DNA of 64,000 nucleotides. Source: a virus. The notes under the pieces were generated by a model. The model did no database searches and was not told the DNA's origin. It saw nothing but the letters and a program-made list of their open reading frames with translations. Within the stretch, counting starts at the first letter, position 1. The number at the start of each line of letters is the position of its first letter. Below are positions 1 through 55,522 of this stretch, piece after piece. The position numbers and the translations under genes were made by a program. The stretch lies in IMG/VR virus record IMGVR_UViG_3300045988_102364, one strand, 5' to 3'.

Positions 1-29
1 TACATATCGCTTGTATCGAAATATAAAAA

Positions 30-545
30 GTGGAAAAGAAATTGTACGTCTGCGAAAAATGCGGACGAAAAGTAATGATAAGAAGTCATGGCTTATGCCA
101 GGCTTGCAGGAGCAAAGAGTTGACTCCGAAGAAAAAAGACAGAATTACATCCATTAAAAACAGCAGCAAGAAGAAAAAGTTAGAGAACCCGGATTTATCC
201 GGGTTTTTTCGTCTTATGTTGGAGGAGTTGAGTACTATTCGAATGTCTATGACCGGTAAGGCTATTCATTTTCCTACAGTATGTAACGTATGTCACATAC
301 TTCCGAAAAGGATATATAAGTCGGTTGCTACTTGCAGGGATAATATAGTTTTCCTTCATGAATCGGAGCATACGGTATTCGACATGTATCTTGACCGGAT
401 GGAATTTGATAAACTTGAAACAGAATTTCCTTTTGTGTGGAAGTATGCGGTAAAGAAGGTACTGGATATGGAAAGCAGGGGAATGATTAAAGAAAGAGGT
501 AGATTAATTATTGAAATAATTGACAGATATGAGAAAACTTTATAA
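30..545 (+). CDS. hypothetical protein with N-terminal CxxC..CxxC zinc ribbon
   Basis: 171-aa ORF; N-terminus CEKCGRK...CQAC resembles a zinc ribbon; no other recognisable motif. Confidence 0.35.
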   Translation: MEKKLYVCEKCGRKVMIRSHGLCQACRSKELTPKKKDRITSIKNSSKKKKLENPDLSGFFRLMLEELSTIRMSMTGKAIHFPTVCNVCHILPKRIYKSVATCRDNIVFLHESEHTVFDMYLDRMEFDKLETEFPFVWKYAVKKVLDMESRGMIKERGRLIIEIIDRYEKTL

Positions 546-6789: not shown

Positions 6790-6999
6790 ATGGAAAAGAA
6801 GGAATTTAAAGTAGGAGAAGTGTTTGATGCCGGACTTGTGAGATTAAAATGCGTGGAACCTACGGCACCAGATGCAGGATGTGAAGGATGTATATTTAAC
6901 GACCACATTACATGCGGGTCGGTAGATGTAGTCGCAGGCCCGTGTAGTCACGCGGAGAGGGAGGACAACAAGAATGTTATTTTTATTAAAGCTGATTAG
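6790..6999 (+). CDS. small Cys-rich hypothetical protein
   Basis: 69 aa; preceded by strong AGGAGG Shine-Dalgarno at 6779-6784. Confidence 0.3.
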   Translation: MEKKEFKVGEVFDAGLVRLKCVEPTAPDAGCEGCIFNDHITCGSVDVVAGPCSHAEREDNKNVIFIKAD

Positions 7000-7001
7000 G
7001 C

Positions 7002-7715
7002 ATGTACATCAATTTCAGACAACTTGCAGCATCAGACATGACGCCTAATGATCTTGCTAATCTTCTTGCCATAAGACAGAAGGATACGGTTATGATCGAA
7101 GCCATGCCGGAAGAAGACGCTGGAAGATATATAGAGCTTGGCCTGGTTGAGAAATTAAAATCAGGCGTGATGAGATTAACCAACAAAGGAACGTCTTTTA
7201 TGAATTATATAGAGACACCGGAGATGACAGACGAGGTTCTGGAAACGTTGAAGATTATGATAGGAATGTACGAATCATATTCAAAAGACATAGGTGTCAG
7301 TAGAAAAGAGGCGGAATCCAGATTGTGTTGGTTTATGGGTAACACCTCATTTAAGAAAGAAGTCATACTTCAAGTAACGGAATCTTATATAGCAGAGTCA
7401 GGAGATTACACAATGAGCTTATGTAACTTCATATGGAAACCGCCTTCTCAGGCTTTTTCAGTCCATATGAACCTTAAAAACTCAAAGCTCTTTGACCTAA
7501 TAGCTGAAAAATTTAAGATCGCTACCGAGCCTTATTTGGAGCCTAAGAAGAATAAGGAAATGGATTGGTTGTTTGCCGTATCTAAATTGCCTACGCCGCC
7601 GGCTAAAGGCAATCCGGATTATTTGTTTACCGGAAGTTCGGAAACAGACAAAGAACGATTGAAAAATATAAAAACGTATTTATTTAACAAAATTAGAAAG
7701 CAATGGAAAAAGTAA
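7002..7715 (+). CDS. hypothetical protein
   Basis: 237-aa ORF immediately upstream of the ACP gene. Confidence 0.3.
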   Translation: MYINFRQLAASDMTPNDLANLLAIRQKDTVMIEAMPEEDAGRYIELGLVEKLKSGVMRLTNKGTSFMNYIETPEMTDEVLETLKIMIGMYESYSKDIGVSRKEAESRLCWFMGNTSFKKEVILQVTESYIAESGDYTMSLCNFIWKPPSQAFSVHMNLKNSKLFDLIAEKFKIATEPYLEPKKNKEMDWLFAVSKLPTPPAKGNPDYLFTGSSETDKERLKNIKTYLFNKIRKQWKK

Positions 7716-7954
7716 GAATTAGAAAGATAATAGAGGATATAATTATTACTCAGTTTCTTAATTCGGAAATGGATATAGTTCATGAAGAAGATGTGTCGTT
7801 TGAAGAACTTGGATTAGATTCTCTTGATCAAATTGAACTCGAGATGATGGTGGAACAAAAATTCAATATTGTTGTTAATGATGACAATATTAAATCCATC
7901 AAAGATATGACTGATCTTGTTTACAAAATAAAAACAGAAGGACATGGGAAATGA
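7703..7954 (+). CDS. acyl carrier protein
   Basis: 83 aa; FEELGLDSLDQIELEMMVEQKFNI matches the ACP phosphopantetheine-attachment DSL motif and helix II. Confidence 0.75.
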   Translation: MEKVRIRKIIEDIIITQFLNSEMDIVHEEDVSFEELGLDSLDQIELEMMVEQKFNIVVNDDNIKSIKDMTDLVYKIKTEGHGK

Positions 7955-8438
7955 TATAATTTTATGCATGGCTTTAATAGCATCATTTGCTTTTGTTATA
8001 CAGTTTTTATTGTCGATATTAGGATCTGATTTAGATACGGATATTGACATTGATAGCGCTTCTGATTTAAGTATGTCTTTGTCGGACATCATATCATTCA
8101 AGGGCATAACACATTTCATCCTTGGATATAGCTGGACTACCTACTTTTCGGGTTCTCATTTAGTAGGGGTTGTGATAGGGTCGTTTTTCTTTATCGTTTT
8201 GTTTTACGTATATAAATTACTTCTTAAGTTAAAACAAGAAATGGTGTACGAATGTCCGGAAGATTTAAATGGCAGAGAGGTGGAGATAGTATTTAGATCA
8301 GGTAAGAATCATTATATGGTAAATATTTCGAAAAATGGAAGACAGGAACAGATGAGAGTGAGGTGCTTGTCTGGAAAAAATTACAAAAACGGTGACAAGG
8401 TGAATATAAAATACGAAGAAGGAGAATTAAGTATCTAA
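7944..8438 (+). CDS. NfeD-like membrane protein (flotillin partner)
   Basis: Three hydrophobic segments followed by a C-terminal beta-rich domain (VEIVFRSGKNHYMVN...GDKVNIKYEEGEL); sits immediately upstream of flotillin as in yuaF-floT operons. Confidence 0.55.
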   Translation: MGNDIILCMALIASFAFVIQFLLSILGSDLDTDIDIDSASDLSMSLSDIISFKGITHFILGYSWTTYFSGSHLVGVVIGSFFFIVLFYVYKLLLKLKQEMVYECPEDLNGREVEIVFRSGKNHYMVNISKNGRQEQMRVRCLSGKNYKNGDKVNIKYEEGELSI

Positions 8439-8469
8439 TTTTTTTATCAACAATTAAATTTTAAAAGTT

Positions 8470-10170
8470 ATGACAACAATCATGTACGTGTCAGCTATTT
8501 TAGCTGTAGTGATTATTTTGACAATCATCGGAGTCTTATCAAGGTATCGTAGATGTAAACCTAATCAAGTCTTGGTCGTTTATGGTAAGACAGGTGGGGA
8601 AAAGAAATCGGCGAAATTATATCATGGTGGAGCGGCATTCGTCTTGCCTATTATTCAAAGCTATGATATTTTGTCTATGGAGCCTATGCAAATAGATTGT
8701 AGGCTCACCGGTGCTTTGTCGTCTCAAAATATCAGAGTGGATGTACCTACTACTATTACAGTAGCAATCAGCACAAATCCTGAAATTATGCAGAATGCAG
8801 CAGAAAGGCTTTTGGGGATGGATACTGAATCTACTGAAAATCTTATTACGGATATCGTTTATGGCCAAATGCGTTTGATCATTGCTGAAATGACGATTGA
8901 AAAACTTAATTCTGACAGGGATGAGTTTTTGGATAAGGCAAGAAAAAACATTGATAACGAACTTAATAAGTTAGGCCTTTACCTCCTAAATATCAACATC
9001 AGTGACATCAGAGACGAAGCCGGTTATATTATGAACCTTGGTAAGGAGGCTGAAAGTAAGGCCCTGAACGAAGCACAGGCTAATATCGAAGAACAGGAAA
9101 AGCTGGGTGCTATTAAGATTGCTGTACAGCAGAAGGAGAAAGAAACGGCTGTAGCTAATACCAAAAAAGAACAAGAGATTCAAATTGCTTGTACTGAAAA
9201 AGAAAAGGAAACGATAGTAGCTGAAACGAAGAAAGAAAAAGAAATAGCTTTAGCTTTAACCGATAAAGAGAAACAGATCGGTGTAGCTCAAGCAGATAGA
9301 GACAGGGCTGCGGTTATCGCAAAAACTTTAACCGACAAGGAATCGGCGATCGTAAGATCTAAGGCAGAACTTGAAGTAAATAAAGCCGAGGCTGAAAGGA
9401 TGGAAGAAGTCGGAAAGAATAAGGCTGAAGCTGACAAGGAAGCAGCTATAGCAATACAAGACTCTGAAGCTCAGATTAAGAAGGCTGAGGCTGAGAAAAA
9501 TGCGTCTATAGGATACAACAATGCCCAGAAGGAGGTTGCTGTATCAGAATCAGAGCTACAGGTTATCAAAGCTCAATCAGAAAAGAAAGCCGGAGAAGAG
9601 AGAGTTAAATCGGAAGCGGCTGTGAAAACGGCAAAAGAGCTTGCTGATAAAGAAGTGGAAGAAGCTAAAGCTAAGAAGGTTCAAGCTGCGCTTAAAGCTG
9701 AAAAGATTGTGCCGGCTGAAATTCAGAAGCAGGAGGCTATGTTGCAAGCTGATGCTGAAGCTGAGAAGATCAAACGTCGGGCTGATGCCGAAGCAGCAGC
9801 ACATTTGGCAAAAGCAGAAGCGGAAGCAAAAGCTATTCAGATGAAGCTGGAGGCAGAAGCCGAAGGTAAGAAAAAGTCGTTGATGGCAGAAGCCGACGGA
9901 TTTAAGGCTATGGTGGAAGCAGCAGAATCCAATCCTCAGATAGCCATCCAGTACAAGATGGTTAATCAGTGGAAAGAAATTGCTGGAGAACAGGTTAAAG
10001 CATTTGAGCACATTAATCTCGGAAATATCACGGTATTTGACGGCGGTCAGAACAGTACCGGTAATTTCCTTAACAATGTTGTCAAGACCGTCGCTCCGGC
10101 ATTGGGAGTCATTGATCAGCTTCCGATTGCAGATACTTTAAAGAAATTAAAAGGAGATGACAAAAAATAA
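8470..10170 (+). CDS. flotillin / SPFH (band 7) family protein
   Basis: N-terminal TM helix then SPFH core (QVLVVYGKTGG...NIRVDVPTTITVAIS...LITDIVYGQMRLIIAEMTIEKLNSDRDEF) followed by a long E/K/A-rich coiled coil, typical of FloT/YqiK. Confidence 0.85.
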   Translation: MTTIMYVSAILAVVIILTIIGVLSRYRRCKPNQVLVVYGKTGGEKKSAKLYHGGAAFVLPIIQSYDILSMEPMQIDCRLTGALSSQNIRVDVPTTITVAISTNPEIMQNAAERLLGMDTESTENLITDIVYGQMRLIIAEMTIEKLNSDRDEFLDKARKNIDNELNKLGLYLLNINISDIRDEAGYIMNLGKEAESKALNEAQANIEEQEKLGAIKIAVQQKEKETAVANTKKEQEIQIACTEKEKETIVAETKKEKEIALALTDKEKQIGVAQADRDRAAVIAKTLTDKESAIVRSKAELEVNKAEAERMEEVGKNKAEADKEAAIAIQDSEAQIKKAEAEKNASIGYNNAQKEVAVSESELQVIKAQSEKKAGEERVKSEAAVKTAKELADKEVEEAKAKKVQAALKAEKIVPAEIQKQEAMLQADAEAEKIKRRADAEAAAHLAKAEAEAKAIQMKLEAEAEGKKKSLMAEADGFKAMVEAAESNPQIAIQYKMVNQWKEIAGEQVKAFEHINLGNITVFDGGQNSTGNFLNNVVKTVAPALGVIDQLPIADTLKKLKGDDKK

Positions 10171-10187
10171 ATACAATGGCCCAAGGT

Positions 10188-10256
10188 TACACTTGGGCCT
10201 AATTGAAGAAATAAAAGCAGCATTCATAGATTTCCTGCCGGCAGGAACAGTGCTTT
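10188..10256 (+). terminator. two stem-loops after the flotillin gene (GGCCCAAG..CTTGGGCC and 16-bp palindrome TTCCTGCCGGCAGGAA)
   Basis: Perfect inverted repeats directly downstream of the floT stop; no strong U-run. Confidence 0.35.
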
Positions 10257-10323
10257 ACTAATTACGATATTTTTAACATGGATTTTGGACAAGATTTAGA
10301 ACCAGAAGAACTGACCAAGCATT

Positions 10324-10683
10324 ATGATCAGTGTTATGGAATTGATTTTGAAACAGAAGAAGAGGAGGATGAAGAGTATGACCGATGAGGAATTTGCATT
10401 AGATAATAAGAAAAAGGTTGTTGTAAGAAAAAGAATATCTTATTTAAACAAAGGGGATAAAGTGTGGATCGTGTCTTCCGACGGGTATCTGCTACACACG
10501 GACGTAGTTAGAGCCGAACGCGGACGGTCTTATGTGGATATAGATGGGATTCTGTATTGGAAGCGAGGATTAGATGGCAAGCATCGTAATCGTAATAACT
10601 ACATGCAGTTTGCCATGACACCAGAAGACGGTAAGAAGTATGTCGTATATTACCCGGAAGGATTTAAAGACAATGACTTATGA
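10324..10683 (+). CDS. hypothetical protein (likely start at ATG 10378 after GAGGAGG)
   Basis: ORF with internal SD-ATG. Confidence 0.3.
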   Translation: MISVMELILKQKKRRMKSMTDEEFALDNKKKVVVRKRISYLNKGDKVWIVSSDGYLLHTDVVRAERGRSYVDIDGILYWKRGLDGKHRNRNNYMQFAMTPEDGKKYVVYYPEGFKDNDL

Positions 10684-11699
10684 TGGTCCCGGAAACGCAT
10701 TTGCTATATAAGGAGTTTAATGGTGTAAAACGTCTTGCCATATCTTATTCCCAGATAGATACGTTTCTTACCTGTCCAATGAAATGGTATAAGACTTACG
10801 TAGAGGGCAAAAGGTCTACGGAAAAACAAGAAGCTACGTCTTATGGTACGGTTATCCATAAGACACTGGAATACTTTTTTAAGAACGGAAGACAGCCTTC
10901 TGGTAAAGACCTTGGAGAAGCAATAAGTTACTATGCTTACCAGGAAGACATACCTTGGCAATCACCGGAAAATATGATGATAGCCATGAAGCAATCTGGA
11001 GAGCTTCTTGCTTGGATTATAGATCTATTTAAAAAAGACGGGAATAGGTTTATGATAGCTGATAGTGATCTTAATCCCTGTGAGAAACTCATCAGACACG
11101 GTGCCATAATAGGAGTCGAAGAGGATTTTGTGCTACCGTACCGTCTTCCTAAGCCTGTTAACATAAATGGAGTAATTCATACTCATGTGTACATAGTAGG
11201 ATCGGTAGACCTTCATCTGGCTATAAAAAGCAAGAACGTAGTTCACCATTATGTCATAGATTGGAAATCAGGTAATAAGGTTTTTGATTCTAAGAAGTTG
11301 GAAACAAATTTACAGCATCCTATATATTCATTTTACATCTATAGAAAATATGGTGGAGTTCTGCCAGATATGAACATCTATTTCTTTACCAGGACCAGGC
11401 AGTACCAAAAGGTTAAGGTGGATGAGGAACGTAAAACAAAATCTATAGAGATGCTAAATGACACTTTGTCTAAAATGTATGATTTTGAAGATAATAGTGT
11501 AAAATCATTTCAAGCGTACATCCAGGGAGCAGAAGGAGCCAGGTATAGCAAGCGGCGTGCCACCCTAAGCCAGCCTGTTTCGCAAAACAAGCTACCCTGC
11601 CCGTCAGCACTGTGTTATTATTGCGACTTTGGATTACATAACAAAAACGAATGCCCTTTCTCTTCGGATTGGGATCCGTCTAAAAAGATAAAACGATGA
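10680..11699 (+). CDS. Cas4/RecB-like PD-(D/E)xK exonuclease with Fe-S cysteine cluster
   Basis: N-terminal Cys (FLTCPMKWY), core VIDWKSGNK D-x-K motif, and C-terminal CPSALCYYCDF...C three-Cys cluster characteristic of Cas4-like nucleases. Confidence 0.6.
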   Translation: MMVPETHLLYKEFNGVKRLAISYSQIDTFLTCPMKWYKTYVEGKRSTEKQEATSYGTVIHKTLEYFFKNGRQPSGKDLGEAISYYAYQEDIPWQSPENMMIAMKQSGELLAWIIDLFKKDGNRFMIADSDLNPCEKLIRHGAIIGVEEDFVLPYRLPKPVNINGVIHTHVYIVGSVDLHLAIKSKNVVHHYVIDWKSGNKVFDSKKLETNLQHPIYSFYIYRKYGGVLPDMNIYFFTRTRQYQKVKVDEERKTKSIEMLNDTLSKMYDFEDNSVKSFQAYIQGAEGARYSKRRATLSQPVSQNKLPCPSALCYYCDFGLHNKNECPFSSDWDPSKKIKR

Positions 11700-11838
11700 A
11701 ATACGATGATGTTCAAAAGTTAAGAACAAAATACCGGCAAGATCCGGAAGTTATAAACTTGACATACATGAGAGACGTTGCTGTACGATGCGGGAATTTC
11801 AAGAAAGCGTTTGAGCTTCAGGAGAAGCTGGAGGATAT

Positions 11839-12189
11839 ATGGTTCAACTATTTAAAAGGAGTGTAATGAAAGAAGATCTAATATGTGGAGTAGCGATCCT
11901 TTTGTATTTAGTTTTATTATACTTACTCACGACAGCTTTCATAAAAACAGGTAGAGCAGTAGATCGTTATAAGATGAAGAAGAAAACTGACAAAATCAAA
12001 GTAGGTCAAAGATACGAACATAAGAACTACTTTGAGGATCCATTTGAAAGAGGCAAGCATGTGATTAAGATATTAGACATAAAAGAAGAGTACGCTCTAT
12101 ATGAGTACGAAGAAAAACTATATATACGTTCTTCTGTGAGTCTTGAAGATATTGCTAAAAGATATGTTTTAATTACTGATATAAAATAA
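11839..12189 (+). CDS. hypothetical membrane protein
   Basis: 116 aa with one hydrophobic helix. Confidence 0.3.
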   Translation: MVQLFKRSVMKEDLICGVAILLYLVLLYLLTTAFIKTGRAVDRYKMKKKTDKIKVGQRYEHKNYFEDPFERGKHVIKILDIKEEYALYEYEEKLYIRSSVSLEDIAKRYVLITDIK

Positions 12190-12195
12190 GGGATT

Positions 12196-12582
12196 ATGGA
12201 AAAGAAAGTCACAATCAAAGAAGGGATGGATATTTTTTACAAAAATGCAGGGAAAGGTATATGGGTCTATATTGGACTTTTTGGAAATAAAGTGCTATCC
12301 ATTTTAAAAAACAAAGGTGTTATTGCATGCGAAAACGATGCTGAATATTGCGTGTTGATGGATGGAGAAGATCATTTCATAAGTATAGCAAAAGACATGA
12401 GTCACGACTATTGTTGTGAGTACGTTGTAGAAAGAGCAGAAGCCTACAGAGACTACCCCTCCAAAGGCGCTACATGCAGTGTATGCCTGTTTGAAGATAA
12501 TGAGAATAAAGCAAGGGAGATGTTGAAAGAGGCGATAATAGAACTTTCAAAAAATAATATAATAGATTGTGATGGGCTTTGA
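12196..12582 (+). CDS. hypothetical protein
   Basis: 128-aa ORF. Confidence 0.3.
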   Translation: MEKKVTIKEGMDIFYKNAGKGIWVYIGLFGNKVLSILKNKGVIACENDAEYCVLMDGEDHFISIAKDMSHDYCCEYVVERAEAYRDYPSKGATCSVCLFEDNENKAREMLKEAIIELSKNNIIDCDGL

Positions 12583-13993
12583 ACTTAGACCTTACCAGAA
12601 AGAAGCAGTAGATGCCGGGCTTAAGTTTCTTACAGGAAGATCTAAAAAGCCTGGCATAATAGTAGCCCCATGCGGAGCGGGTAAGAGCCTTCTGATATCC
12701 AAGATAGCACATGAGATAAATAGACCAACGTTAGTATTGCAGCCATCAAAAGAAATTCTGGAGCAGAATTATGCTAAGGCTGTATCGTTTGGCTCCGAAC
12801 CTACTATATACTCTGCCTCATGTGGCGTAAAGGAATTATCGGCTATGACTTATGCTACACTTAAAAGCATAAAGAAAGACGTAGCAAGGTTGAAAGATAC
12901 AGGGATAGATACCTTATTGATAGACGAATGTCATTCAGGATATTCTCCTGAAGAAGGTTCTGAATTTATGGAGTTTATGAGCGAGTTTCCCGAGGCGAAG
13001 GTGCTGGGCTTCACCGCCACTCCCTGCCGCCTCAGAGCCTACAGTTCCATGCTGGAAGGAAACTATAGCAAACTTAATATGCTGACAAAAGACGAGCATA
13101 ACTTCTTCAAGAAGTTAGTTCATGTAATACAAATACAAGAGCTAACTTCTCAAGGTTTTTGGTGTCCACTTAAGTACGAACGATGGTCATTTGATGAATC
13201 GGCTCTGATGTTAAACAGTACCGGAGCCGAATATACCAACGAATCTATTAAAGAAAGCATCGTACGAAATGGCTTAAACAACTCTATCTACAAGCGTCTT
13301 CTTCAGCTTATGAACGAGCGTAAAGCCATTTTGGTTTGTATGGATTCTATCGAATCATGTAATAGAATATCAGAGTTTATGAATGCCAAAATGGGAGCCA
13401 TAACAGGTGTCGTAACATCGCTAACAACCAAAAAGAAAAGAGAGCAAATCATATCAGATTTCAAAGAAGGTAAGTTGAAGGTGGTTTTTAATTATTCAAC
13501 GCTTGCTACCGGATTTGATTTTCCTGAACTTGATTGTGTGATGTTTGGTCGACCGACTTTCTCATATTCAACGTATTACCAAATATTAGGCCGCGCCGTC
13601 CGCATCCATCCTGACAAGAAAGAGGCGCTGATTATTGATTGCTGCGACAACATGAGGCGTTTCGGTCGGATAGAAGACTTGACAATCGAGCAATTCCCTT
13701 CTAAGGGCTGGTGTATGTTTGCCGGCGATCAACTTCTGTCCAATATAAGGATGGGTGATATTATTACCAAAGACGAGATCCTTCGCCGGGCGGCCTCACT
13801 TAAATCTGTGAATGGAGATGGTAGGAGAGAAGACGATCTTGACAGTATAATAATGTGGTTTGGAAAATATGAAGGAATTAGATTCAAGGACATACCGGTG
13901 TCGTATTTTAGGTTCTTGGCTGAGAATATGGCAGTAAAACCGGGAGATAGGAAAGAAAAGATTATCGAATATTATAATAGGATAAAGGCATGA
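12569..13993 (+). CDS. superfamily-2 DEAH-box DNA helicase
   Basis: Motif I GIIVAPCGAGKSL, motif II LIDECH, motif III GFTATPCR, motif VI ILGRAVRIHP; C-terminal FGKYEGIRFKDIP..YFRFL resembles a DUF3820-type tail. Confidence 0.8.
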   Translation: MMGFELRPYQKEAVDAGLKFLTGRSKKPGIIVAPCGAGKSLLISKIAHEINRPTLVLQPSKEILEQNYAKAVSFGSEPTIYSASCGVKELSAMTYATLKSIKKDVARLKDTGIDTLLIDECHSGYSPEEGSEFMEFMSEFPEAKVLGFTATPCRLRAYSSMLEGNYSKLNMLTKDEHNFFKKLVHVIQIQELTSQGFWCPLKYERWSFDESALMLNSTGAEYTNESIKESIVRNGLNNSIYKRLLQLMNERKAILVCMDSIESCNRISEFMNAKMGAITGVVTSLTTKKKREQIISDFKEGKLKVVFNYSTLATGFDFPELDCVMFGRPTFSYSTYYQILGRAVRIHPDKKEALIIDCCDNMRRFGRIEDLTIEQFPSKGWCMFAGDQLLSNIRMGDIITKDEILRRAASLKSVNGDGRREDDLDSIIMWFGKYEGIRFKDIPVSYFRFLAENMAVKPGDRKEKIIEYYNRIKA

Positions 13994-24900: not shown

Positions 24901-25426
24901 AATTAACACCCTTATCCTGTACCATAGATACGGGAGTGAAGTCCGAAGATATAGCATCTTGTAGATACTGGCCGGCGTCTATTCCTGGTCCTTCCGGTAT
25001 GGAAATACCTGACGGAACCATAGCATCCACCAACATAATATTATCACCCAGATCCTGGCTATAGAATCCAAAGCCTGATTCTTGAATCCCATAAGGTGCA
25101 TCTGATTTCGACACAAGAATAGGGTTGCTCATCTTAGAAGCCTTATCCAGCACCCTTTCTCTATAGGCTTCCGGAATAAGGTCGATATTGGATTTTACCT
25201 TATTGTAAGCCTGTTTGTTGATAGGCACATTCCTTCTCCAGTCACCAAAAGCCTTTAAGAACTTATTAGAAAATACGGTTTTAAAAACAGTAGTAGCCCG
25301 TTCCCTATTTTCCATAAGAGGAATAGATGCTATCTTATCGAATAACATAGACCTGTCCCCTGATCTGGTAGAGACAGAAACAACTTTCTTTTTATTATCT
25401 CTTTTAATAATACACGTTGATGTCAT
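18980..25426 (-). CDS. giant virion/tail-associated protein (2148 aa)
   Basis: Single uninterrupted ORF ending with TAG; mixed alpha/coiled-coil composition; no recognisable catalytic motif. Confidence 0.5.
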   Translation of the reverse strand: MTSTCIIKRDNKKKVVSVSTRSGDRSMLFDKIASIPLMENRERATTVFKTVFSNKFLKAFGDWRRNVPINKQAYNKVKSNIDLIPEAYRERVLDKASKMSNPILVSKSDAPYGIQESGFGFYSQDLGDNIMLVDAMVPSGISIPEGPGIDAGQYLQDAISSDFTPVSMVQDKGVNYMVIKDGLKIFSPEELPQTDSNPVGVTYQTGEPRLFFMNDRSQLFEDYGEALRSGGNDIRIGFLSGTVQESTVDGVADITYKAGKYVLNNPKSFIPVMTASASTSLSTKGGIINYLIKKGLLSGSKIFDPETRSYYLTGEGHTGQIRLFNSALSYTELRNHFGSDVSMNDQGMITISSLDNSNVTMRLATGGTERVSKEQIKNDLKSGRYNELDAKYDHFDALVVSFILEDNDLYADTKAKIVSDYSRQERDQRNSIVEILKTLGVSVIGMTDYIEKYQTKYGHEPSAKALADIANNVIAVGEDATLSDLVEETAHFLVEAYRDQNAVEAVLQDVEGTEEWNQYAGQYYNTYGKAYEGAELDNAVRREILGKILAREMQAGTAQAPVEPTSFLGRVRQLFSGIVSWLKSALSTQRQDLNNVIKNIRDLAITDIDKGFDTSLLKDNDFTLYSLSSMNKNKFLESKIRSLRKTLRDLRQISSDRAVTTSMTLAQLKTIEDKINKVETEIDKNEMAAAMNSMISTAEAQVRYLSNVVNTILHGDTKDGKLHFNTNDRKNVDIINNQVLPIMNDLRGYIRNRSTEFDEREKQDYTNRINTVIADINGIQSDIKSVQDLDESTLLDKLMNELHVPADKVKRVKEFFDKVQHDVSWISRWFGILEHSSSPFNNALGAMIAKDNYNAMVNAQPAISDFLAYAKKHGFNKSEFEKLLQKVDGKTSNYLRSALDMAKYDRNKKLAQMRAFATAMNIEISEEEIGDVVDNNRNYVFKREVVDKDGNTVTENAKFKPSSDRVNTDIFTIEQEKIYTEQMEKWDAENSELEFSESYATRMESIYKKAEEELGHPVSQTTKEYLNALSRQKRILRQPFIDSGGNFDEVAYFKSSNYEEEGLLRKQRKEAASEYIYVGTRRVEKTGDQLKMAKEIQAINEVWRKESNNVTNAVSESFLQKLRAIQSESGGEAALRTLMLGGHLSFNDRFWNDIESEQSARTESNNKASYLKMAHDIISSTTSDRDATDVDSIVKDIEKNKAIIKEIIGNNRDVADIGEINEATFTSSERDAFRAASEAIEADYAILIDYAKMVGLEDIDKYLTKSNKAENEVNQSYLNALADSKEVEWKFVQRHTTAKKAKRIQALRDKLFKAADNRYLFTVSETNYLSEKLGISKELDGRDFRNAVNAKMASLFLNNTREEGIEADIKAGIEEANAIVNEFARSQVFSYYKRMAPTGYAAMIDKIGRGEIDVAQMVKDVQNGTSTQDYGMDISYLSFDPARAWVAESEAENSGRNPDYVKDHGYGHRMPKKSLYRDESYFNDFGIKYDVDGNEVATKNVEQWNMIQKLKEIKRQSLDLYKEQSPNLYAIPQISKQDIERIEGLGINFKNTVRNFVSDLCLDRVDDSLYGKTRQGEVYDPEDRLRSIPKYYIYELENQDDVSHDFGYSYSMLMMQSSLYNEKQKSIELAQGLEQMLLNKQFEGGKKAEATQAYQMFRDFFNDHYYGIRMNTKKLTVNIGGYTVDLTRIMMAVERFMSVMNLALSPFVAATGALTGHINLIMESAVGQYISKDSLKYASAEFSRLAPSCIAETGDIDRKSKLYVIGERMGIFNIRNRMYGAGYNRVARTLMRSPMYAFMEILNYPLDPQVMIATMDNVRYYKGRFYTFQDFKMEKERNKEQSTIKREWNALKDRTLWSMVDVVDGKVVVKPGSGVTVEEVETQMAITRNQVRSLSQICNGSLNEENRTAASRNWIARFMTAHRGWLVLAAQRLWKRRGFNFQTMQEEEGLSITLKNMIAKTFSLASESGMKNIIDAWNENKDNMNEVEKTNLKRLSVYAGTFLIMQAVSMLLAGWRDDDENEESWLTQFGSYVGFRTINEIASQMPFIMELNVVDIINDPFVMGRKLKDLTDLRNYSLDKVTSGTYKGESKLFRQLAKQTFIKQWYNIKTPEDVARAYNWWQQTNNKSMMFFIGATPDSEGDDDVSYK

Positions 25427-25478
25427 AGTAAAACATTTTTGTTATGAGACAAAGGTAATTAAAAATCAGGCACATGAT

Positions 25479-25514
25479 AAAAACAAAGCCGTCTAACTTC
25501 CCAGTCTGACGGCT
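25479..25514 (-). terminator. intrinsic terminator downstream of gene 25567-25959
   Basis: 7-bp stem AGCCGTC/GACGGCT with 14-nt loop, followed on the minus strand by UUUGUUUUU. Confidence 0.5.
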
Positions 25515-25566
25515 TAATATAAATATGAAAAAAAATTATAATCTGACGCAAATCGTCAAGTTACGC

Positions 25567-25959
25567 TTATGCATTGTATTTGTACCCATTTCTATGAATA
25601 AACCTTCCTGATTCGAACCTTTCCACATCATCCGGTCCAATAGGTCCGCAGTCTTCCCTCCTTGCCTCATACCACAGCCCAGGCTTACGGAGCCGGCAGG
25701 TTATGACGTATTTAAAGCAGTTGTGAGTAAAATGGAATACGGAGCCTACTGGGAAATACCTGGTAGTTTGAAACACTATTCTTTTTCGTTTAGTATCAAA
25801 CACTATATCTCCTACTACCTTAGTTACGTAATAGCTTCTGCCATTTAACGTTTCATCTGTTTGTGGTATCCAATAATAACCTCTTGCCATGCCACAAATA
25901 TATAAAAAAAGTCGGACAAGATACATGTCCGACTTTATATTACTTTGATTCGTTTTCAA
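25567..25959 (-). CDS. hypothetical protein
   Basis: 130-aa ORF. Confidence 0.3.
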   Translation of the reverse strand: MKTNQSNIKSDMYLVRLFLYICGMARGYYWIPQTDETLNGRSYYVTKVVGDIVFDTKRKRIVFQTTRYFPVGSVFHFTHNCFKYVITCRLRKPGLWYEARREDCGPIGPDDVERFESGRFIHRNGYKYNA

Positions 25960-26099
25960 ACCGCTTTATAAGAGAAGCAATATCATCACCACAAACAAAC
26001 ATCATTCGACGTTCTTCTTTTGGTTTATGAGACACTGGGATGGTTTTGTTTATCTTAATCTGATTCGCCAGACCTCTGCCTAAACGAATATCAACTTTT

Positions 26100-26417
26100 T
26101 TACCTTTCATGAATTATTTGTTTAAAAAGACCAATTCCATCTATTATAATATGACCACTTTGCATACGACCATTATTAGGATTGTGTAGAAAATTGAAAC
26201 CACTTTCTTTTTCCTGTCTTTCAAAAGAACTGATATCCTTTCCTCTACGGGCTCTTTCAAAAGCTTTCTTGAACAACTTGCCTCTAAAGGTCTTGACGAG
26301 GATCTTGGTAGCGTTATTGCCGGCTTTTACCATTGCTTTCCTTGCCTGGTCCTCCGAGACAAAACTGCTTCGGAAAATATACGATGCTGCTGTTTGTATG
26401 TCCTGCTTGGTAATCAT
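26100..26417 (-). CDS. hypothetical protein
   Basis: 105-aa ORF. Confidence 0.3.
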   Translation of the reverse strand: MITKQDIQTAASYIFRSSFVSEDQARKAMVKAGNNATKILVKTFRGKLFKKAFERARRGKDISSFERQEKESGFNFLHNPNNGRMQSGHIIIDGIGLFKQIIHER

Positions 26418-26764
26418 ATGATAAACATTTCTTTCAGAATACTGATCTTTATTCCGTATATCAATTTCATCTCATCTCTATCATATACGTCAAAAAAGGA
26501 TTCACTGGGGTCCTTTGGATTTACGTTCAATTGAATTATGCAATTACCAGTATAAACCTTAAGCCTATAATTATCGGAGTATATATCCTGCATGGTTTCA
26601 AATGTCTCAATTAAATTTTCAACAAGTGCTCTGTTAAATGAAAAAGATTCTTTACCATCACCTTTAAATGTGATATGATCTAAATCCCTGTTGTCAAATT
26701 CATACTTTAATTGATTGCCGTCCATCATATCATAAAATATTGACTTTCTGATTATAAATCCCAT
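26414..26764 (-). CDS. hypothetical protein
   Basis: 116-aa ORF, coupled to neighbour. Confidence 0.3.
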   Translation of the reverse strand: MGFIIRKSIFYDMMDGNQLKYEFDNRDLDHITFKGDGKESFSFNRALVENLIETFETMQDIYSDNYRLKVYTGNCIIQLNVNPKDPSESFFDVYDRDEMKLIYGIKISILKEMFII

Positions 26765-26781
26765 ATTGTTTTATTTTTTAG

Positions 26782-27087
26782 TTAATACAAATCTTCTGAA
26801 TACAATTGTTCTCTAATAGCACTCCTATCTACTACCATTTCCTGATTATTGTTTCTAACAAGTTCAGATGCTTCTTCTCTTGTTAAAAACCGATTCTTGC
26901 TTGTCAAAAATCCTTGAACACTGCGGTTTTTATGAGCTATTCCGTATGCCGCAAGTTGCGATATTATGGAACAGTGTCTCAATCCACAAAATACGGTTCC
27001 AGATGGTATATTTACTGGACCGTGAGGCTTGTTCTTGTGATCTTGAACCCATATAGCTGCACATACAACAATTTCCTTATCACACAT
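26782..27087 (-). CDS. hypothetical Cys-containing protein
   Basis: 101-aa ORF. Confidence 0.3.
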   Translation of the reverse strand: MCDKEIVVCAAIWVQDHKNKPHGPVNIPSGTVFCGLRHCSIISQLAAYGIAHKNRSVQGFLTSKNRFLTREEASELVRNNNQEMVVDRSAIREQLYSEDLY

Positions 27088-27090
27088 AAA

Positions 27091-27381
27091 TCAATAATTT
27101 AAAATACCGTTTTTACCAATATGCTTCTTTTCTTCTTCAGTAGGCCATTCTTTCTTGAACTTACCGTGCCACGTTCCAGGAACTACCACCACTTCGCCTC
27201 CCCTACTATATTCAATAGCGGCACATTCAGAACAAAGAGGCTTGCCTTCATATCCCTTTAGCGACTTATCGTAAATACGATTCTTACAAGGTCTCATAAG
27301 AGCCCAGTAATATGATGTGGCTGTATTATCTATACAGCCACATTTTGAACACACAAACAAACTCATTTCGTAATCTCCCAA
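27091..27381 (-). CDS. small zinc-ribbon protein
   Basis: CSKCGC...CKNR...CSEC four-Cys pattern. Confidence 0.35.
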   Translation of the reverse strand: MGDYEMSLFVCSKCGCIDNTATSYYWALMRPCKNRIYDKSLKGYEGKPLCSECAAIEYSRGGEVVVVPGTWHGKFKKEWPTEEEKKHIGKNGILNY

Positions 27382-28109
27382 TCATTTGACGATATATCTT
27401 CTATACTTGGGTTCCACGATGTCAGCCTCCGTGTTTCTTCATTTATAATTATGATCAATGACTTTTCCACATGAATTGAGCTAACACCACTTCTTCTAAA
27501 AGCATCAAGATGTTCATTTTTCCATCCACGTCTTTTGATCATATTACTATCTTTCAGAAATTTAAAAGCTTCTTCAAATGTTAAACCTGACTTCTTTTGA
27601 TTAAGATACTGTTCAAGTCTGTCGGCGGCTTCATTTGGTGTATGACCATCATATTCGAAAGAGGTTTCTCTCTCTGGAACATCAAACAAATCCCAGTACT
27701 TGCTTTCATAGTGATTAGACACCTGACCAGTGGGTAACATTGCCATCACAATAAACCAATCATCAGAACCGAAGCATTTTTCTCCGTCGCTGTGCCTTCT
27801 TGATTTGCAAACTTCAACCTGTCCGTTTCTGGCTAATAGATTAAAGAAGGCGGCGTTGTACAACATACGGTACCGATACAATTCATTGAAAGTATGGTAT
27901 CCGTCAGAAACTTCTCCCATGTCTACAGGCTTCTTGTTTTGAATACTACCCAAAATATTCTCTACATAGAGCTGTATTTTATACAGACCCATTTCGGTGT
28001 GGCCGTATTTGTTCAAGATCTTATTGACATCGTATTGTATATTAAAATCTTTTTCAAATTCTACTTCAGGATGATTCGGATAGCAGTAGTCCACTGATGC
28101 TTCTAACAC
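27363..28109 (-). CDS. protein with C-terminal DUF2829-like domain
   Basis: C-terminus TFEEAFKFLKDSNMIKRRGWKN...SWNPSIEDISSNDWEI matches the phage DUF2829 pattern (KxxRxxW ... PWxPSQxDxLAEDWEIV). Confidence 0.5.
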   Translation of the reverse strand: MLEASVDYCYPNHPEVEFEKDFNIQYDVNKILNKYGHTEMGLYKIQLYVENILGSIQNKKPVDMGEVSDGYHTFNELYRYRMLYNAAFFNLLARNGQVEVCKSRRHSDGEKCFGSDDWFIVMAMLPTGQVSNHYESKYWDLFDVPERETSFEYDGHTPNEAADRLEQYLNQKKSGLTFEEAFKFLKDSNMIKRRGWKNEHLDAFRRSGVSSIHVEKSLIIIINEETRRLTSWNPSIEDISSNDWEITK

Positions 28110-28279
28110 TGACTTTACGTGTTCTATTATCCTCGCAACATCATCATTTTAAAAAAAATGCTTAAATCTTTCAACGAATTTAATATCTTCGTTGATTGCT
28201 GATTCGAACTCTTCTTTTGTCATCACTCTAACTACATCTTTAAAATCTTTTAATTCCATGATTTGTTTTAAATTAGTTG

Positions 28280-28912
28280 TTATACTTTCTTTATCCTACA
28301 ATACAAACCCCATAAGAACTCGGCAGAAAAACCATTCCATGCATTATTCTGCCAAATATCTACTTTGTTAATAAACCAAGACCATGTAGGACCATCATAT
28401 GAAGAATCAGATGATGATCCCAATCCGATTTTCTCCATTTCATTCGCCACATCAGAATAAGGATCTAAAATGACTCCCCTAATCATGTTAATAATATCAT
28501 CCTTGTCTAACGTGAATTGAAACCGCTCCTTGTTAGTAGGCGGATCTTGATTCAATTTACCAGTCGCAAGCCATTCTCCATCATGATACAATTCGGCAAG
28601 TTTCTTTACCTTATTTTTAAGAAAAGAATACTCTTGTATGACTTCCATAAAATTAGCTTCGTTAGCTTTACCTTCTATGAAGATAACGGTTTTGCTTCCA
28701 AGTCTATGATCGTCTAAGCTTGCCGGGATTCCCAATATCGTCCATCCTTTAAACTCAGCTATCTTAAAACGCATGACATCAAACACCTTATAGAAATCAT
28801 CACAATCTACAGATTCTATTACCTTAATATCCTCTTCTGTGAATTTACCTCGTATTGGAATAACGTGATGACCGGGGCAGCCATCGGTTCCGAAATATGC
28901 GATTCTAACCAT
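28280..28912 (-). CDS. hypothetical protein
   Basis: 210-aa ORF. Confidence 0.3.
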   Translation of the reverse strand: MVRIAYFGTDGCPGHHVIPIRGKFTEEDIKVIESVDCDDFYKVFDVMRFKIAEFKGWTILGIPASLDDHRLGSKTVIFIEGKANEANFMEVIQEYSFLKNKVKKLAELYHDGEWLATGKLNQDPPTNKERFQFTLDKDDIINMIRGVILDPYSDVANEMEKIGLGSSSDSSYDGPTWSWFINKVDIWQNNAWNGFSAEFLWGLYCRIKKV

Positions 28913-28913
28913 A

Positions 28914-29144
28914 TTATATATAATATTTTAGTTGTTCTGAAATCCTATATTTACTTATATCATCGCACAAGTTACACCCTCCCGCACATCCACAAACCGA
29001 ACAATACGAATCTCTTTCTGCCTTCGATTTAGATTGGAAATCTCTTGCAGCTTTAATCCAGGTAGGAGAAATAATATTACCGGAAAATATAGGTACATTT
29101 AAGATTAATATTTTCATTATTTTGGCAAAATATTCATATAACAC
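28914..29144 (-). CDS. small protein with C-terminal Cys cluster
   Basis: CSVCGCAGGCNLC. Confidence 0.3.
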   Translation of the reverse strand: MLYEYFAKIMKILILNVPIFSGNIISPTWIKAARDFQSKSKAERDSYCSVCGCAGGCNLCDDISKYRISEQLKYYI

Positions 29145-29332
29145 GGCACATCTACTACGTCTCTTCTACGGATGCGCTTCTCAAAATAAGAAACCATATA
29201 GGTATTTTTACCTTCGTGATCAGGTCTGGGATCAAAGCATTCAAAAACGAATCTTGTTCTACCTTCAAGATGACCAAACATGAAAACAAATTCGCCACCG
29301 TATCTTTTATTAGCCAATTCTTCTACAGTCAT
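29117..29332 (-). CDS. hypothetical protein
   Basis: 71-aa ORF. Confidence 0.3.
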   Translation of the reverse strand: MTVEELANKRYGGEFVFMFGHLEGRTRFVFECFDPRPDHEGKNTYMVSYFEKRIRRRDVVDVPCYMNILPK

Positions 29333-29556
29333 AATCGGTCCCCTCCTAATCCTGAATTGATGCTAACGTACTTAACACGGACATCATTTCCACGTCCAAG
29401 CTGTCCCCAGCCGGGCGATGGCGTTCCCTTGGCCGGAGCAGGGACAGCCCTAAGCCGAGACCAGTCCTGCTTTTGCCTCATGGCTTCAGCCTCTTTGTAA
29501 TACCGGTTACACAGTTCTTGATCTTCGTAACCAACGTAATCTTCCTTATTTTCCAT
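29329..29556 (-). CDS. hypothetical protein
   Basis: 75-aa ORF with a GC3-rich codon patch. Confidence 0.3.
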   Translation of the reverse strand: MENKEDYVGYEDQELCNRYYKEAEAMRQKQDWSRLRAVPAPAKGTPSPGWGQLGRGNDVRVKYVSINSGLGGDRL

Positions 29557-29624
29557 ATAGAATAGTTTTTCAACAAAAGTACGACATTCATGAATTAATT
29601 AGATTTAAAATAAAACAATATGAA

Positions 29625-29661
29625 TTAAAATAAAAACCCGATACGTTAAAATCGCATCGGG
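29625..29661 (-). terminator. intrinsic terminator downstream of gene 29684-29866
   Basis: 9-bp stem CCCGATACG/CGCATCGGG (one mismatch) followed on the minus strand by UUUUUAUUUUAA. Confidence 0.45.
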
Positions 29662-29683
29662 CCTGGTATTGAAAAAAATAGGT

Positions 29684-29866
29684 TCAGATCTTGGGTAAAG
29701 ACTCGAGCCAATTTTTAACATCTTTATATTTAGGGTCTTTGTCTATTCTATCTTTCAGTTCATGCAATGCTGAGTCCATAACCATATTCGGTACGCCAAT
29801 CAACTCTCCTATTAAATACAATGGGGTTTTATTTGATTTAGATTCGTGTGCCATATTCATATCCAA
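29684..29866 (-). CDS. hypothetical small protein
   Basis: 60-aa ORF. Confidence 0.25.
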   Translation of the reverse strand: MDMNMAHESKSNKTPLYLIGELIGVPNMVMDSALHELKDRIDKDPKYKDVKNWLESLPKI

Positions 29867-29951
29867 AAAAAAGTTATGTGAAACAAACCGGCCACGGGTA
29901 TTCTATTGCCCGCCGACCGGTATAACATTTTTTTTATTCCTTTTTTTCCAA

Positions 29952-29976
29952 ACGGGAAAAACGGGAATGCGGGAAT
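29952..29976. promoter_or_regulatory. three direct repeats of ACGGGAA(T) spaced 8-9 nt, next to an imperfect GC-rich hairpin (29887-29921) and T-runs
   Basis: Seen directly in the intergenic region between the minus-strand genes at 30028 and 29866. Confidence 0.3.
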
Positions 29977-30027
29977 CATATTTTTTACTATGGCTCCCGC
30001 ACCACCGGAAGGGCCTGGGCCTGGATC

Positions 30028-30321
30028 TCAGGTCAGATCCTTCCAGTTTATTTTTTCGCCGAGGTAATCTTGCACGGCAAGCCATCTTATAAAGGCTACT
30101 CCTTCGGGAGCATCCGGATCATCCAAATACATTAACGTAGCTTTCACCAACTCGTTCTCACATTTGAAGACCTTCGGAAAACCATCCGAATAGTACATTG
30201 CAAAGACATATTGGACATCGCCCCATGTCGCTTTATCCGGCTTCTTCGCTCCGCACTTTTCAAAAATATCTTTTATTTCCGGCTGCTTCCAGATCCTCTT
30301 GGATCCATCGACGTTGACCAT
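30028..30321 (-). CDS. hypothetical protein
   Basis: 97-aa ORF. Confidence 0.3.
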   Translation of the reverse strand: MVNVDGSKRIWKQPEIKDIFEKCGAKKPDKATWGDVQYVFAMYYSDGFPKVFKCENELVKATLMYLDDPDAPEGVAFIRWLAVQDYLGEKINWKDLT

Positions 30322-30414
30322 CTTCTTTACCGCCTCATCAGCAAGAGCATTAGAAAAATGGTAGCCGTAAGTATCTACATATTTCTGATAAGCTGGATCC
30401 TCTGCGTCTGCTCC

Positions 30415-30786
30415 TCAATAAGAACGACCTCTGCCACGTCCGCGACCTCTACGCATCTGAGGTCCGTCACCGTAGTATCTGTCGTCTCCATAGTAATCGG
30501 TCGGGTAGGATTCGTAACCCATCCTCCGGTATTCCCGGTCCTCCATTTCATGACGACGTTCGCGCTCCTCAAGCCTTCTTTCCCTTTCTTCCAGCTCGTT
30601 TTCGCGTTCTTCCATTTCCTTCATCTTCTCATGCATACCGTAATGATCATAAGGAGGAAGGAACCCATGTCCGTACTCCATGTACGTTCCATCAGCACGC
30701 CGGCTTCTGCCTCTGCCTCGTCTGTCTTCTATCTCGTCATATCCAGGATATTCTCTGTGTCCTGAATTTAAATCATATACTATCAT
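30415..30786 (-). CDS. Arg/Glu/Tyr-rich low-complexity protein with RGRGRGR and ERERR repeats
   Basis: 123-aa ORF on the strand of neighbouring genes; the overlapping plus-strand ORF 30211-30765 looks like antisense noise. Confidence 0.35.
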   Translation of the reverse strand: MIVYDLNSGHREYPGYDEIEDRRGRGRSRRADGTYMEYGHGFLPPYDHYGMHEKMKEMEERENELEERERRLEERERRHEMEDREYRRMGYESYPTDYYGDDRYYGDGPQMRRGRGRGRGRSY

Positions 30787-30793
30787 ATTATAC

Positions 30794-31288
30794 TTATTTC
30801 AAACGTTCTACAATTAACTTCTTTAAATCTTCGAATGAATCAGTAAGGTCATTCACCTTATTTTCTATACCAGCTATTTTACGATCCTGCTCTCTCGTTT
30901 GTTTGAATGCCGGATTGATGTCTTCTAATATAGATTCACAAGCCTCTATCTTGGCACGATGGGTATCTACGCTGTCTATTATGTCTTGACTGGTGCTTTT
31001 TATAGCATTCAGTTCGTTCATAATCGGATCTATGCTGGTAGATAATGTTATACCCATAGCCTTAGCCACATTCTGGGATTCCGGAACCGTATAGGTCTTG
31101 GTTTCGCCAGTGAGCTCTACCGTCAGATCCACCACGCGGGTCTGCATCGCCTGATACTGACCCGGCTGAGGAGGAAGATACCTGGGTTCGGATACGGCTA
31201 CTACCTTTCCCAATTCGTATTTAGGTACTGTATTAGTATCAAGGGTATGTACCTGAAACCCTTTCTTCAAATCTGAAAACATGATCAA
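30794..31288 (-). CDS. hypothetical protein
   Basis: 164-aa ORF. Confidence 0.35.
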   Translation of the reverse strand: MIMFSDLKKGFQVHTLDTNTVPKYELGKVVAVSEPRYLPPQPGQYQAMQTRVVDLTVELTGETKTYTVPESQNVAKAMGITLSTSIDPIMNELNAIKSTSQDIIDSVDTHRAKIEACESILEDINPAFKQTREQDRKIAGIENKVNDLTDSFEDLKKLIVERLK

Positions 31289-31338
31289 AATATTATTTAG
31301 GTGAAAATAGGGTGATGATCTCCATCACCCTACTGAAA

Positions 31339-31752
31339 TCATTTACCTGCTTTAACTTCAGACGCCTGGGCTGCCGCTACTGGAACACAGCAATCCATTA
31401 ATCTTAACACGCCACGAACTTTATTGAAGTACAGAAGGCGTTCTGTGCCATTTACCATAGCAGCACCCGTTACAGCTACGTTAATAGGGTTCACGACATT
31501 CACTCCCGTAACCGAGCAACAGGTGTCGGCTCCTACTGTTGAAACTGTGCTGTTTGCCGGGACCGCAATCTGTACCGGTAGAGCACTTCCGGCTGTGGGG
31601 ACTACTTGCCTTATCTTAAGAAGGATAAGACCCTCACACGGAAGGGCGATCCAAGCCCGTGGGTTAATACCGAAGATTGTATTTGTCGTACTGACAATAA
31701 CATTCTTCGTAACCATCTCATACAACGATCCTATTTTAGAAACACAAGCCAT
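31339..31752 (-). CDS. hypothetical Cys-containing protein
   Basis: 137-aa ORF. Confidence 0.3.
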   Translation of the reverse strand: MACVSKIGSLYEMVTKNVIVSTTNTIFGINPRAWIALPCEGLILLKIRQVVPTAGSALPVQIAVPANSTVSTVGADTCCSVTGVNVVNPINVAVTGAAMVNGTERLLYFNKVRGVLRLMDCCVPVAAAQASEVKAGK

Positions 31753-31775
31753 ATTAGCCTCCTCTCTTAATAAAA

Positions 31776-55448: not shown

Positions 55449-55522
55449 AATGAAATAATGGATTTGAACCATCGACCTATACTTTAAAAGAGTATCGCTC
55501 TATCCATCTGAGCTAAATTCGA
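55449..55522 (-). ncRNA. tRNA-Lys(UUU)-like element with non-pairing acceptor stem
   Basis: Minus strand: D-arm GCUC-AGAUGGAUA-GAGC, anticodon arm AUACU-CUUUUAA-AGUAU (anticodon UUU), T-arm GAUGG-UUCAAAU-CCAUU; positions 1-7 UCGAAUU versus 66-72 AUUUCAU give only 4/7 pairs; flanked by an 11-bp long-range stem (55431-55441 with 55528-55538). Confidence 0.5.

Follow-up and report, generated by a model that had tools for sequence, protein, structure and literature searches.

A Bacteroidales-Type NfeD-Like/Flotillin Gene Pair, Probably Acquired from the Host, beside an Orphan Acyl Carrier Protein Gene in a Gut Phage

The function of bacterial flotillins is still debated. Several SPFH-NfeD operons are known, namely, yuaF-floT of Bacillus subtilis (NfeD2-FloT), the QmcA-YbbJ operon of Escherichia coli, and the stomatin/1510 operon of Pyrococcus. 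SPFH proteins assemble on membranes into ring- or cage-shaped oligomers, and they occur in complexes with NfeD proteins (PMC12624060). In B. subtilis, both FloA and FloT are regulated by sigma-W, which responds to membrane stress, including phage infection (PMC8581546). In phages, SPFH open reading frames (ORFs) have been listed since 2006 for the T4-like phages 44RR, Aeh1, and RB43, with their role unknown (PMC1524935), and the passages that deal with the orphan acyl carrier proteins (ACPs) of Erythrobacter phage vB_EliS-R6L and of freshwater Flavobacterium jumbophages describe their function as unclear (PMC5463345; PMC13573597). Here we analyzed a 64,000-nucleotide stretch of viral DNA (IMG/VR record IMGVR_UViG_3300045988_102364; the whole stretch is called the window below), in which genes for an ACP, an NfeD-like membrane protein, and a flotillin follow one another on the + strand. 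An earlier reading of the letters alone, referred to here as the original prediction, had located these three ORFs, with the ACP frame overlapping the start of the NfeD-like frame, and had taken them for a single functional cassette. The positions and the overlap were confirmed. The reading that we favor, with a probability of roughly 0.6, is a different one: the phage would carry an SPFH scaffold pair derived from Bacteroidales together with a separate orphan ACP, and the pair would re-set or preserve the host membrane during infection.

The flotillin gene (8470 to 10170, + strand) encodes a FloT-type protein of 566 amino acids (aa). An N-terminal hydrophobic anchor (residues 4 to 24) is followed by an SPFH/Band_7 domain (PF01145; residues 30 to 211, nucleotides [nt] 8557 to 9102; E = 2.7e-25, 89.9 bits against a Pfam cutoff of 23.6), a long helical middle region rich in E, A, and K, and a C-terminal Flot domain (PF15975; residues 450 to 559, nt 9817 to 10146; E = 1.7e-9, 38.3 bits against 27). 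With both domains above the Pfam cutoffs, the predicted flotillin with an SPFH core was borne out. Because it scored 146 bits against the NCBIfam FloT equivalog NF058507, whose cutoff is 700, we regard it as a member of the flotillin family and not as a FloT equivalog. Its relatives range from about 410 to 659 aa in length (533 to 595 aa in the close phage cluster and 481 aa in a phage protein of 74% identity). The length differences appear to sit in the E/A/K-rich region, the length of which would set the dimensions of an SPFH cage; we looked for DNA tandem repeats as their source and found none of note.

Immediately upstream of the flotillin gene lies the gene for a 164-aa protein (7944 to 8438, + strand), the start of which overlaps the ACP stop by 11 nt. 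The protein has three transmembrane (TM) helices, at about residues 2 to 25, 52 to 69, and 72 to 101, and a C-terminal domain (residues 110 to 164, nt 8271 to 8435) that is a five-stranded OB-fold resembling solved NfeD C-domains. N-terminal TM helices, a soluble C-terminal β-domain, and an adjoining SPFH gene together make up the layout of a short NfeD protein of the YuaF type. The original prediction had called this protein NfeD-like and had named PF01957 as the profile that should find it. That profile gave no match at E ≤ 0.1, and searches of Pfam, PHROGs, NCBIfam, and PADLOC returned nothing credible, so that part of the prediction failed; the protein stood as a remote homologue. A profile search gathered a family of 436 representative clusters, mostly of 160 to 180 aa, and 1 of 68 full-length members of this family reached PF01957 (6e-5). 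A profile of the C-domain matched, along the entire domain, 2exd (E = 4.7e-4) and YuaF (E = 0.012), both marginal scores, and a viral homologue in BFVD, 34% identical, carries the UniProt name "NfeD-like C-terminal domain-containing protein." Two sets of matches were set aside as spurious: the top PDB hits of the full-length family profile, which were matches to TM helices such as that of erbB2, and the designed repeat proteins (Bagel/Cake) that came first in the C-domain ranking through a repeated 25-residue motif. On account of the remote profile matches, the named viral homologue, and the position directly upstream of an SPFH gene, we accepted the protein as a putative remote member of the short (YuaF-type) NfeD-like proteins, one that falls outside Pfam's own criterion; remote homology, fold, architecture, and gene position all enter into this identification.

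Alignment of 68 NfeD-like members revealed two conserved elements, an acidic DxDxDxD loop, almost invariant, that links TM1 to TM2 (residues 29 to 41) and an S-F-K-G-x-x-H-F motif at the start of TM2 (residues 51 to 58). These hint at cation binding or at a specific interaction surface. The identification gives a probable identity to a family of about 436 clusters that current profile libraries do not cover and that includes the conserved flotillin partner of most gut Bacteroidales. Homologues were also encountered elsewhere in viral databases. A "Bacteriophage sp." entry, MT836799.1, an unannotated 8.7-kb fragment from human feces, has at its extreme end (5 to 490, minus strand) a gene for an NfeD-like protein of 34.5% identity, and BFVD holds another NfeD-like protein, from "virus sp. 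ctML55." Either could come from another virus that carries the pair or from contaminating bacterial DNA.

The same pair of genes is found in the chromosomes of gut Bacteroidales. Flotillins in ordinary bacterial chromosomal neighborhoods, such as the housekeeping contexts of two contigs (L083 and L087), are 50 to 68% identical to the phage flotillin, and in each case the preceding gene encodes a 165-aa protein homologous to the phage TM protein (38% identity, E = 4e-39); in three loci (L083, L085, and L087), no ACP gene lies beside the flotillin gene. A scan of species-representative genomes returned 324 flotillin relatives, the best 80 of which formed our set of host loci. All 80 were from Bacteroidales (62 to 67% identity), with the genera Bacteroides, Phocaeicola, Parabacteroides, Prevotella, Leyella, and Xylanibacter represented. 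An NfeD-like gene lay directly upstream of the flotillin gene, on the same strand and at a distance of 35 to 172 nt, in 79 of them, and at the sole exception the contig came to an end. Chromosomes of gut Bacteroidales almost universally carry the NfeD-like/flotillin pair as an operon, and the order of the two genes, which had been predicted from bacterial SPFH operons, was confirmed. The genes that follow the flotillin gene vary among the host loci inspected, and within 3 kb of it, neither the phage ACP nor p237, the product of the gene that precedes the ACP gene in the phage, has a homologue in any of the 80 loci.

Between phage and host, the flotillins are 66 to 70% identical and the NfeD-like proteins 32 to 43% identical; the corresponding ranges from host to host are 71 to 98% and 40 to 93%. 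Since the phage copy thus lies outside the range of host-host divergence, it would be an old or a fast-evolving offshoot of the host operon. Sequence comparison indicates that the phage lineage acquired a two-gene SPFH unit from Bacteroidales, and the ancestral unit appears to have consisted of these two genes without an ACP.

The carrier itself would belong to an abundant human-gut crAss-like lineage with genomes of about 150 kb, its class being taken from annotation hallmarks. Positions 7000 to 12000 of the window are 95.6% identical to GenBank entry OR575929.1, the 151-kb genome of the human-gut phage csAssE-Sib, the annotation of which contains hallmarks of the crAss type, namely, muzzle and ring proteins, Bacteroidetes-associated carbohydrate-binding proteins, and a diversity-generating retroelement (DGR). 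In a phage collection, the closest replicative helicases were those of Cellulophaga phages (29%), and those of crAss-like "cr" phages were about 25% identical. At least 165 viral contigs in IMG/VR encode close relatives of the flotillin. The best 80, picked by flotillin similarity (97 to 99% identity, some contigs as long as 155 kb), made up our set of phage loci, which is saturated by one species, and the layout of the window was found again in them. A further possibility, raised with the original prediction, was that the locus is an assembly chimera or host contamination, and the nearest cellular relatives of the pair are indeed host chromosomal genes. Against this, the 80 independent viral contigs share one layout, the complete csAssE-Sib genome has the same junctions, the GC content of the region is unremarkable, and the identity of the flotillin to that of any host is no higher than the 66 to 70% given above. 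We consider this explanation refuted.

A check of co-occurrence in related phages, proposed with the original prediction, showed the ACP gene adjacent to the pair in every phage relative examined. Two diverged phages (L084 and L088; 61 to 83% protein identity) retain the order p237-ACP-NfeD-like-flotillin followed by a small ORF. The suggestion that the module was undescribed held in part: OR575929.1 already annotates the trio as acyl carrier protein, transmembrane protein, and flotillin family protein, and a search of the literature on csAssE-Sib, on flotillins with crAss-like phages, and on phage-encoded SPFH proteins found no paper that describes or discusses the module.

We then compared selection across the locus, using pN/pS (the ratio of nonsynonymous to synonymous polymorphism) pooled over pairwise comparisons, with phylogeny and recombination ignored. 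The pooled values were 0.04 for the flotillin, 0.06 for the NfeD-like protein, 0.05 for p237, 0.06 for the neighboring PD-(D/E)XK exonuclease, and 0.34 for the ACP. The pair is under purifying selection as strong as that on the neighboring replication genes, which would imply that the scaffold matters during infection of Bacteroidales. It also bears on the idea that the pair is a neutral passenger, a piece of host DNA without a role in infection, for which the circulation of deletion variants in several samples and the frameshifting of the downstream small ORF in a third of genomes can be cited. The deletions are in frame and fuse the N terminus of the NfeD-like protein to the C terminus of the flotillin, giving products of 159 and 254 aa (L173, 4001 to 4480; L174, 2912 to 3676; L175, 4001 to 4765). 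The fusion contigs derive from several samples, one variant contig being present in 7, and all of them retain p237, the ACP, and the downstream genes in intact form. The fusion clusters have a handful of members, against about 2,400 member sequences in each of the intact protein clusters. The pair is kept across lineages that have diverged to 61 to 83% identity, and its GC content is fully ameliorated. With the selection data, these observations largely refute the passenger explanation, which we regard as very improbable.

The ACP gene (7703 to 7954, + strand) encodes an 83-aa orphan phage ACP. Its predicted identity was upheld by a match to the Pfam PP-binding profile PF00550 above the gathering threshold (32 bits against 20.8) and by a match to phrog_5934, "acyl carrier protein" (E = 3e-11). 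It also matches 45 solved ACP sequences at E ≤ 1e-3, GLDSLDQIELEMMVEQKF aligning to GADSLDTVEIMMALEEKF, and its phosphopantetheine-attachment serine lies in LGLDS (LGLDSLD) at the start of helix II, aligned to the DSLD of solved ACPs. Because it falls below the cutoff of every NCBIfam AcpP equivalog (TIGR00517/PRK00982; 36 to 40 bits against cutoffs of 66 to 106), we consider it a protein of the ACP fold that is not an orthologue of the housekeeping AcpP. No phosphopantetheinyl transferase (PPTase), acyltransferase, or Fab protein is annotated in the csAssE-Sib genome (151 kb) outside 100 to 109 kb.

The ACP is much more variable than its neighbors. Across the 80 phage loci, its median protein identity to the window is 83%, whereas each of the other four proteins compared (p237, NfeD-like protein, flotillin, and exonuclease) stands at about 98%. 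There are 34 protein alleles across 81 genomes, all full-length ones with an unchanged LGLDS, and clustering at 90% identity divides the ACP of this phage lineage into 954 groups. Balanced and mostly conservative polymorphisms fall at residues 41 (L/I/V), 43 (Q/R), 47 (E/D), and 48 (M/V/A/T), which are placed in helix II by alignment to solved ACPs, and residues 59, 63, and 65 are polymorphic as well. The window's own allele (…VVNDDNIKS…) is a rare one. We also considered the ACP gene as a target of the DGR and rejected the idea, the matches to its template and variable repeats being 7-nt chance matches and the substitutions being mostly conservative.

These data allowed us to weigh the view that the ACP, the NfeD-like protein, and the flotillin form one membrane-remodeling cassette, in which the ACP would supply acyl chains or lipid for a flotillin-scaffolded microdomain. 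The conservation of the p237-ACP-NfeD-like-flotillin order, with overlapping frames, down to 61 to 83% protein identity speaks for it, and both functions are membrane related. Overlapping frames, however, are common across the whole gene array, and homologues of the phage ACP are absent within 3 kb of all 80 host operons. The ACP and the pair also differ in pN/pS (0.34 against 0.04 to 0.06), and they separate in nature in both directions: the fusion variants lose the pair and keep the ACP, while 7 of 80 genomes have a truncated ACP, in some cases perhaps through assembly errors, and retain the pair. Nor does the csAssE-Sib annotation outside 100 to 109 kb offer an acyltransferase or a PPTase for such a pathway. 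Given the host loci without an ACP and the variants of both kinds, we conclude that the ACP and the pair are neither coinherited from the host nor codependent. The single three-gene functional cassette of the original prediction did not survive this comparison; we think a joint cassette unlikely and treat the ACP as an independent orphan phage gene, apart from the flotillin pair.

For the derived pair and its separate ACP, we envisage the following mechanism. The genes would be cotranscribed with the replication genes. The hydrophobic segment at its N terminus would tether the flotillin to the inner membrane. As in other SPFH proteins, the helical region and the C-terminal Flot domain would mediate oligomerization, giving a ring or cage at the cytoplasmic face, onto which the NfeD-like protein would dock through its OB domain. 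In this way, the phage would bring its own membrane-microdomain scaffold to the infection. The most likely purpose would be to maintain or re-set the integrity of the membrane, its fluidity, or the quality control of membrane proteins at a time when the host envelope-stress response is engaged or host gene expression is taken over. The ACP would probably act separately, being converted to holo-ACP by host AcpS and using its polymorphic helix II to bind or divert a host acyl-handling partner.

Several points weigh against this account. The role of the pair in infection is inferred only, from what is known of SPFH rings and cages as a family and from the sigma-W regulation of flotillins. The pooling of pN/pS disregards phylogeny and recombination, and choosing loci by flotillin similarity biases the 80-locus set toward intact flotillins. 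The rare natural deletions show that phages can propagate without the pair. As for the separateness of the ACP, some of its truncations could be assembly errors, and its adjacency to the pair is kept in every phage relative examined, so there may be some functional link between the two.

The existence of a flotillin in all of the best 80 host loci raises the alternative that the phage pair acts on the host's own flotillin. It might coassemble with host cages and poison or retarget them, for instance, so as to weaken an abortive-infection or envelope-stress response, or it might exclude superinfecting phages by enclosing a receptor or injection site. The phage flotillin lies just beyond the range of host-host divergence with every domain kept, and the phage has retained its own diverged NfeD-like partner (32 to 43% identity) and added a small TM protein, all of which would suit interference. 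Retention of a cognate partner fits a self-contained complex equally well, however, and the PADLOC defense models gave no match at E ≤ 0.1 for the four proteins. We view both variants as unlikely but live alternatives to a self-contained scaffold of host origin.

The surroundings of the pair are those of a replication block, as had been predicted: the neighboring genes encode a primase-like DUF6371/Zn-ribbon protein, DnaB, a ResIII helicase, and the PD-(D/E)XK exonuclease. The gene that precedes the ACP gene (7002 to 7715, + strand) encodes the 237-aa p237, to which no function is assigned; its last 13 nt are shared with the start of the ACP gene, and we list it as context of the unit. It had no match in Pfam, PHROG, NCBIfam, PADLOC, or PDB and was found solely within the csAssE-Sib-type phage lineage. 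We considered p237 as a partner of the ACP and set this aside, there being no family or PDB match and the single-sequence AlphaFold2 model being unusable (pLDDT 35).

At the 3′ end of the flotillin gene, a small ORF (10157 to 10261, + strand; 34 aa in the window) overlaps the flotillin frame by 14 nt. It was recognized by alignment with csAssE-Sib, L084, and L088, and it is an annotated coding sequence in OR575929.1. The full form of 50 to 57 aa (mostly 50 to 52 aa), with a C-terminal TM helix, is present in 53 of 81 genomes, and in the other 28, including the window, a 10-nt deletion has left a frameshifted 34-aa ORF. The diverged phage L088 keeps a 52-aa version (8011 to 8169), and L001 has a counterpart at 12157 to 12309. 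Among the first 25 of the 80 host loci, no conserved equivalent followed the flotillin gene, and we assign the small ORF to a putative phage-specific, tail-anchored membrane protein.

Two inverted repeats had been predicted to close the unit at 10188 to 10256. Both are real and have perfect 8-nt arms, but they lie at 10178 to 10199 and at 10232 to 10247 (+ strand), and both fall inside the small ORF, which itself overlaps the end of the unit. The first, a hairpin with an 8-bp stem and a 6-nt loop that begins 8 nt past the flotillin stop codon, is conserved: pairing is perfect in 70 of 85 genomes, 9 have a G:U intermediate, and L088 and L089 have a compensatory G-C pair and a different loop. 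The RNA fold of 10165 to 10265 has a free energy of −27.3 kcal/mol (z = −3.3). The second, an 8+8 palindrome, is perfect in only 21 of 80 genomes; csAssE-Sib and L084 have a broken version, and L088 has none. It is probably incidental. Neither repeat is followed by a T-tract on the + strand, and we rejected both as intrinsic terminators of that strand.

A more ambitious proposal would join all of these parts in a four-part phage membrane module, with a flotillin cage, a coevolved NfeD-like adaptor, a tail-anchored miniprotein, and an ACP whose helix II tracks a variable host partner, which together would re-engineer the Bacteroides inner membrane. Long, low-lysis productive infections have been reported for crAss-like phages. 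If the proposal were true, the module might sustain such infections or exclude competitors, and a viral SPFH microdomain system would for the first time have a defined role; we rate the proposal as a long shot.

Some further features of the window and its relatives were recorded. Just upstream of p237, at 6790 to 6999, is a gene for a small Cys-rich 69-aa protein with a weak match to phrog_33085. It is more variable than the ACP (median identity of 67% among genomes otherwise about 98% identical) and has a pN/pS of 0.32, calculated from few same-length alleles. The helicase of the related phage contig L173 (ResIII/Helicase_C; 6882 to 8480) holds a Hom_end_hint insertion (intein/homing endonuclease) that is absent from its 474-aa counterpart in the window (12569 to 13993). 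The GC content at 30001 to 32000 is 0.456, against about 0.39 elsewhere in the window, and the region from 25426 to 33531 has few long ORFs; two ORFs checked there had no Pfam match. The whole window encodes a single tRNA, Lys-TTT (55449 to 55522).

Host-derived auxiliary genes in phages were known already, as was the annotation of an ACP and a flotillin in GenBank. Two side results of some interest are the helix II polymorphism of the ACP and the previously unannotated NfeD-like family. A diverged yet complete host-type pair under strong selection in a very abundant gut phage also amounts to a natural experiment on flotillins.

Among described systems, the closest is the operon of Bacteroidales such as Bacteroides thetaiotaomicron, B. 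intestinalis, Phocaeicola vulgatus, Parabacteroides, and Prevotella, which has the same pair in the same order, on the same strand, and with the same domain layout. The phage copy differs from it in lying within an array of replication genes and differs from the host loci examined in having an upstream ACP, a downstream small TM ORF, and a hairpin. The comparison with yuaF-floT and the other SPFH-NfeD operons is more distant: the phage NfeD-like protein is too diverged for PF01957 and belongs to a family with a conserved DxDxDxD loop, and the flotillin stays at 146 bits where the FloT cutoff is 700. In phages, flotillin matches are rare (10 of 50,697 phage records). Phages 44RR, Aeh1, and RB43 and Vibrio phage KIT04 likewise encode SPFH proteins, but without a demonstrated host-type NfeD/flotillin pair. 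The KIT04 "flotillin family protein" is only about 30% identical to the flotillin described here, no ACP is annotated beside it, and its upstream ORF was rejected as an NfeD protein (hhalign probability of about 0). The ACP, for its part, resembles the orphan phage ACPs of PHROG 5934/4154, which are likewise small, stand-alone proteins that have a DSL motif and whose phages encode no cognate synthase. It is set apart from them by a marked helix II polymorphism within a single phage species, a feature that the passages on other orphan phage ACPs do not mention (PMC5463345; PMC13573597).

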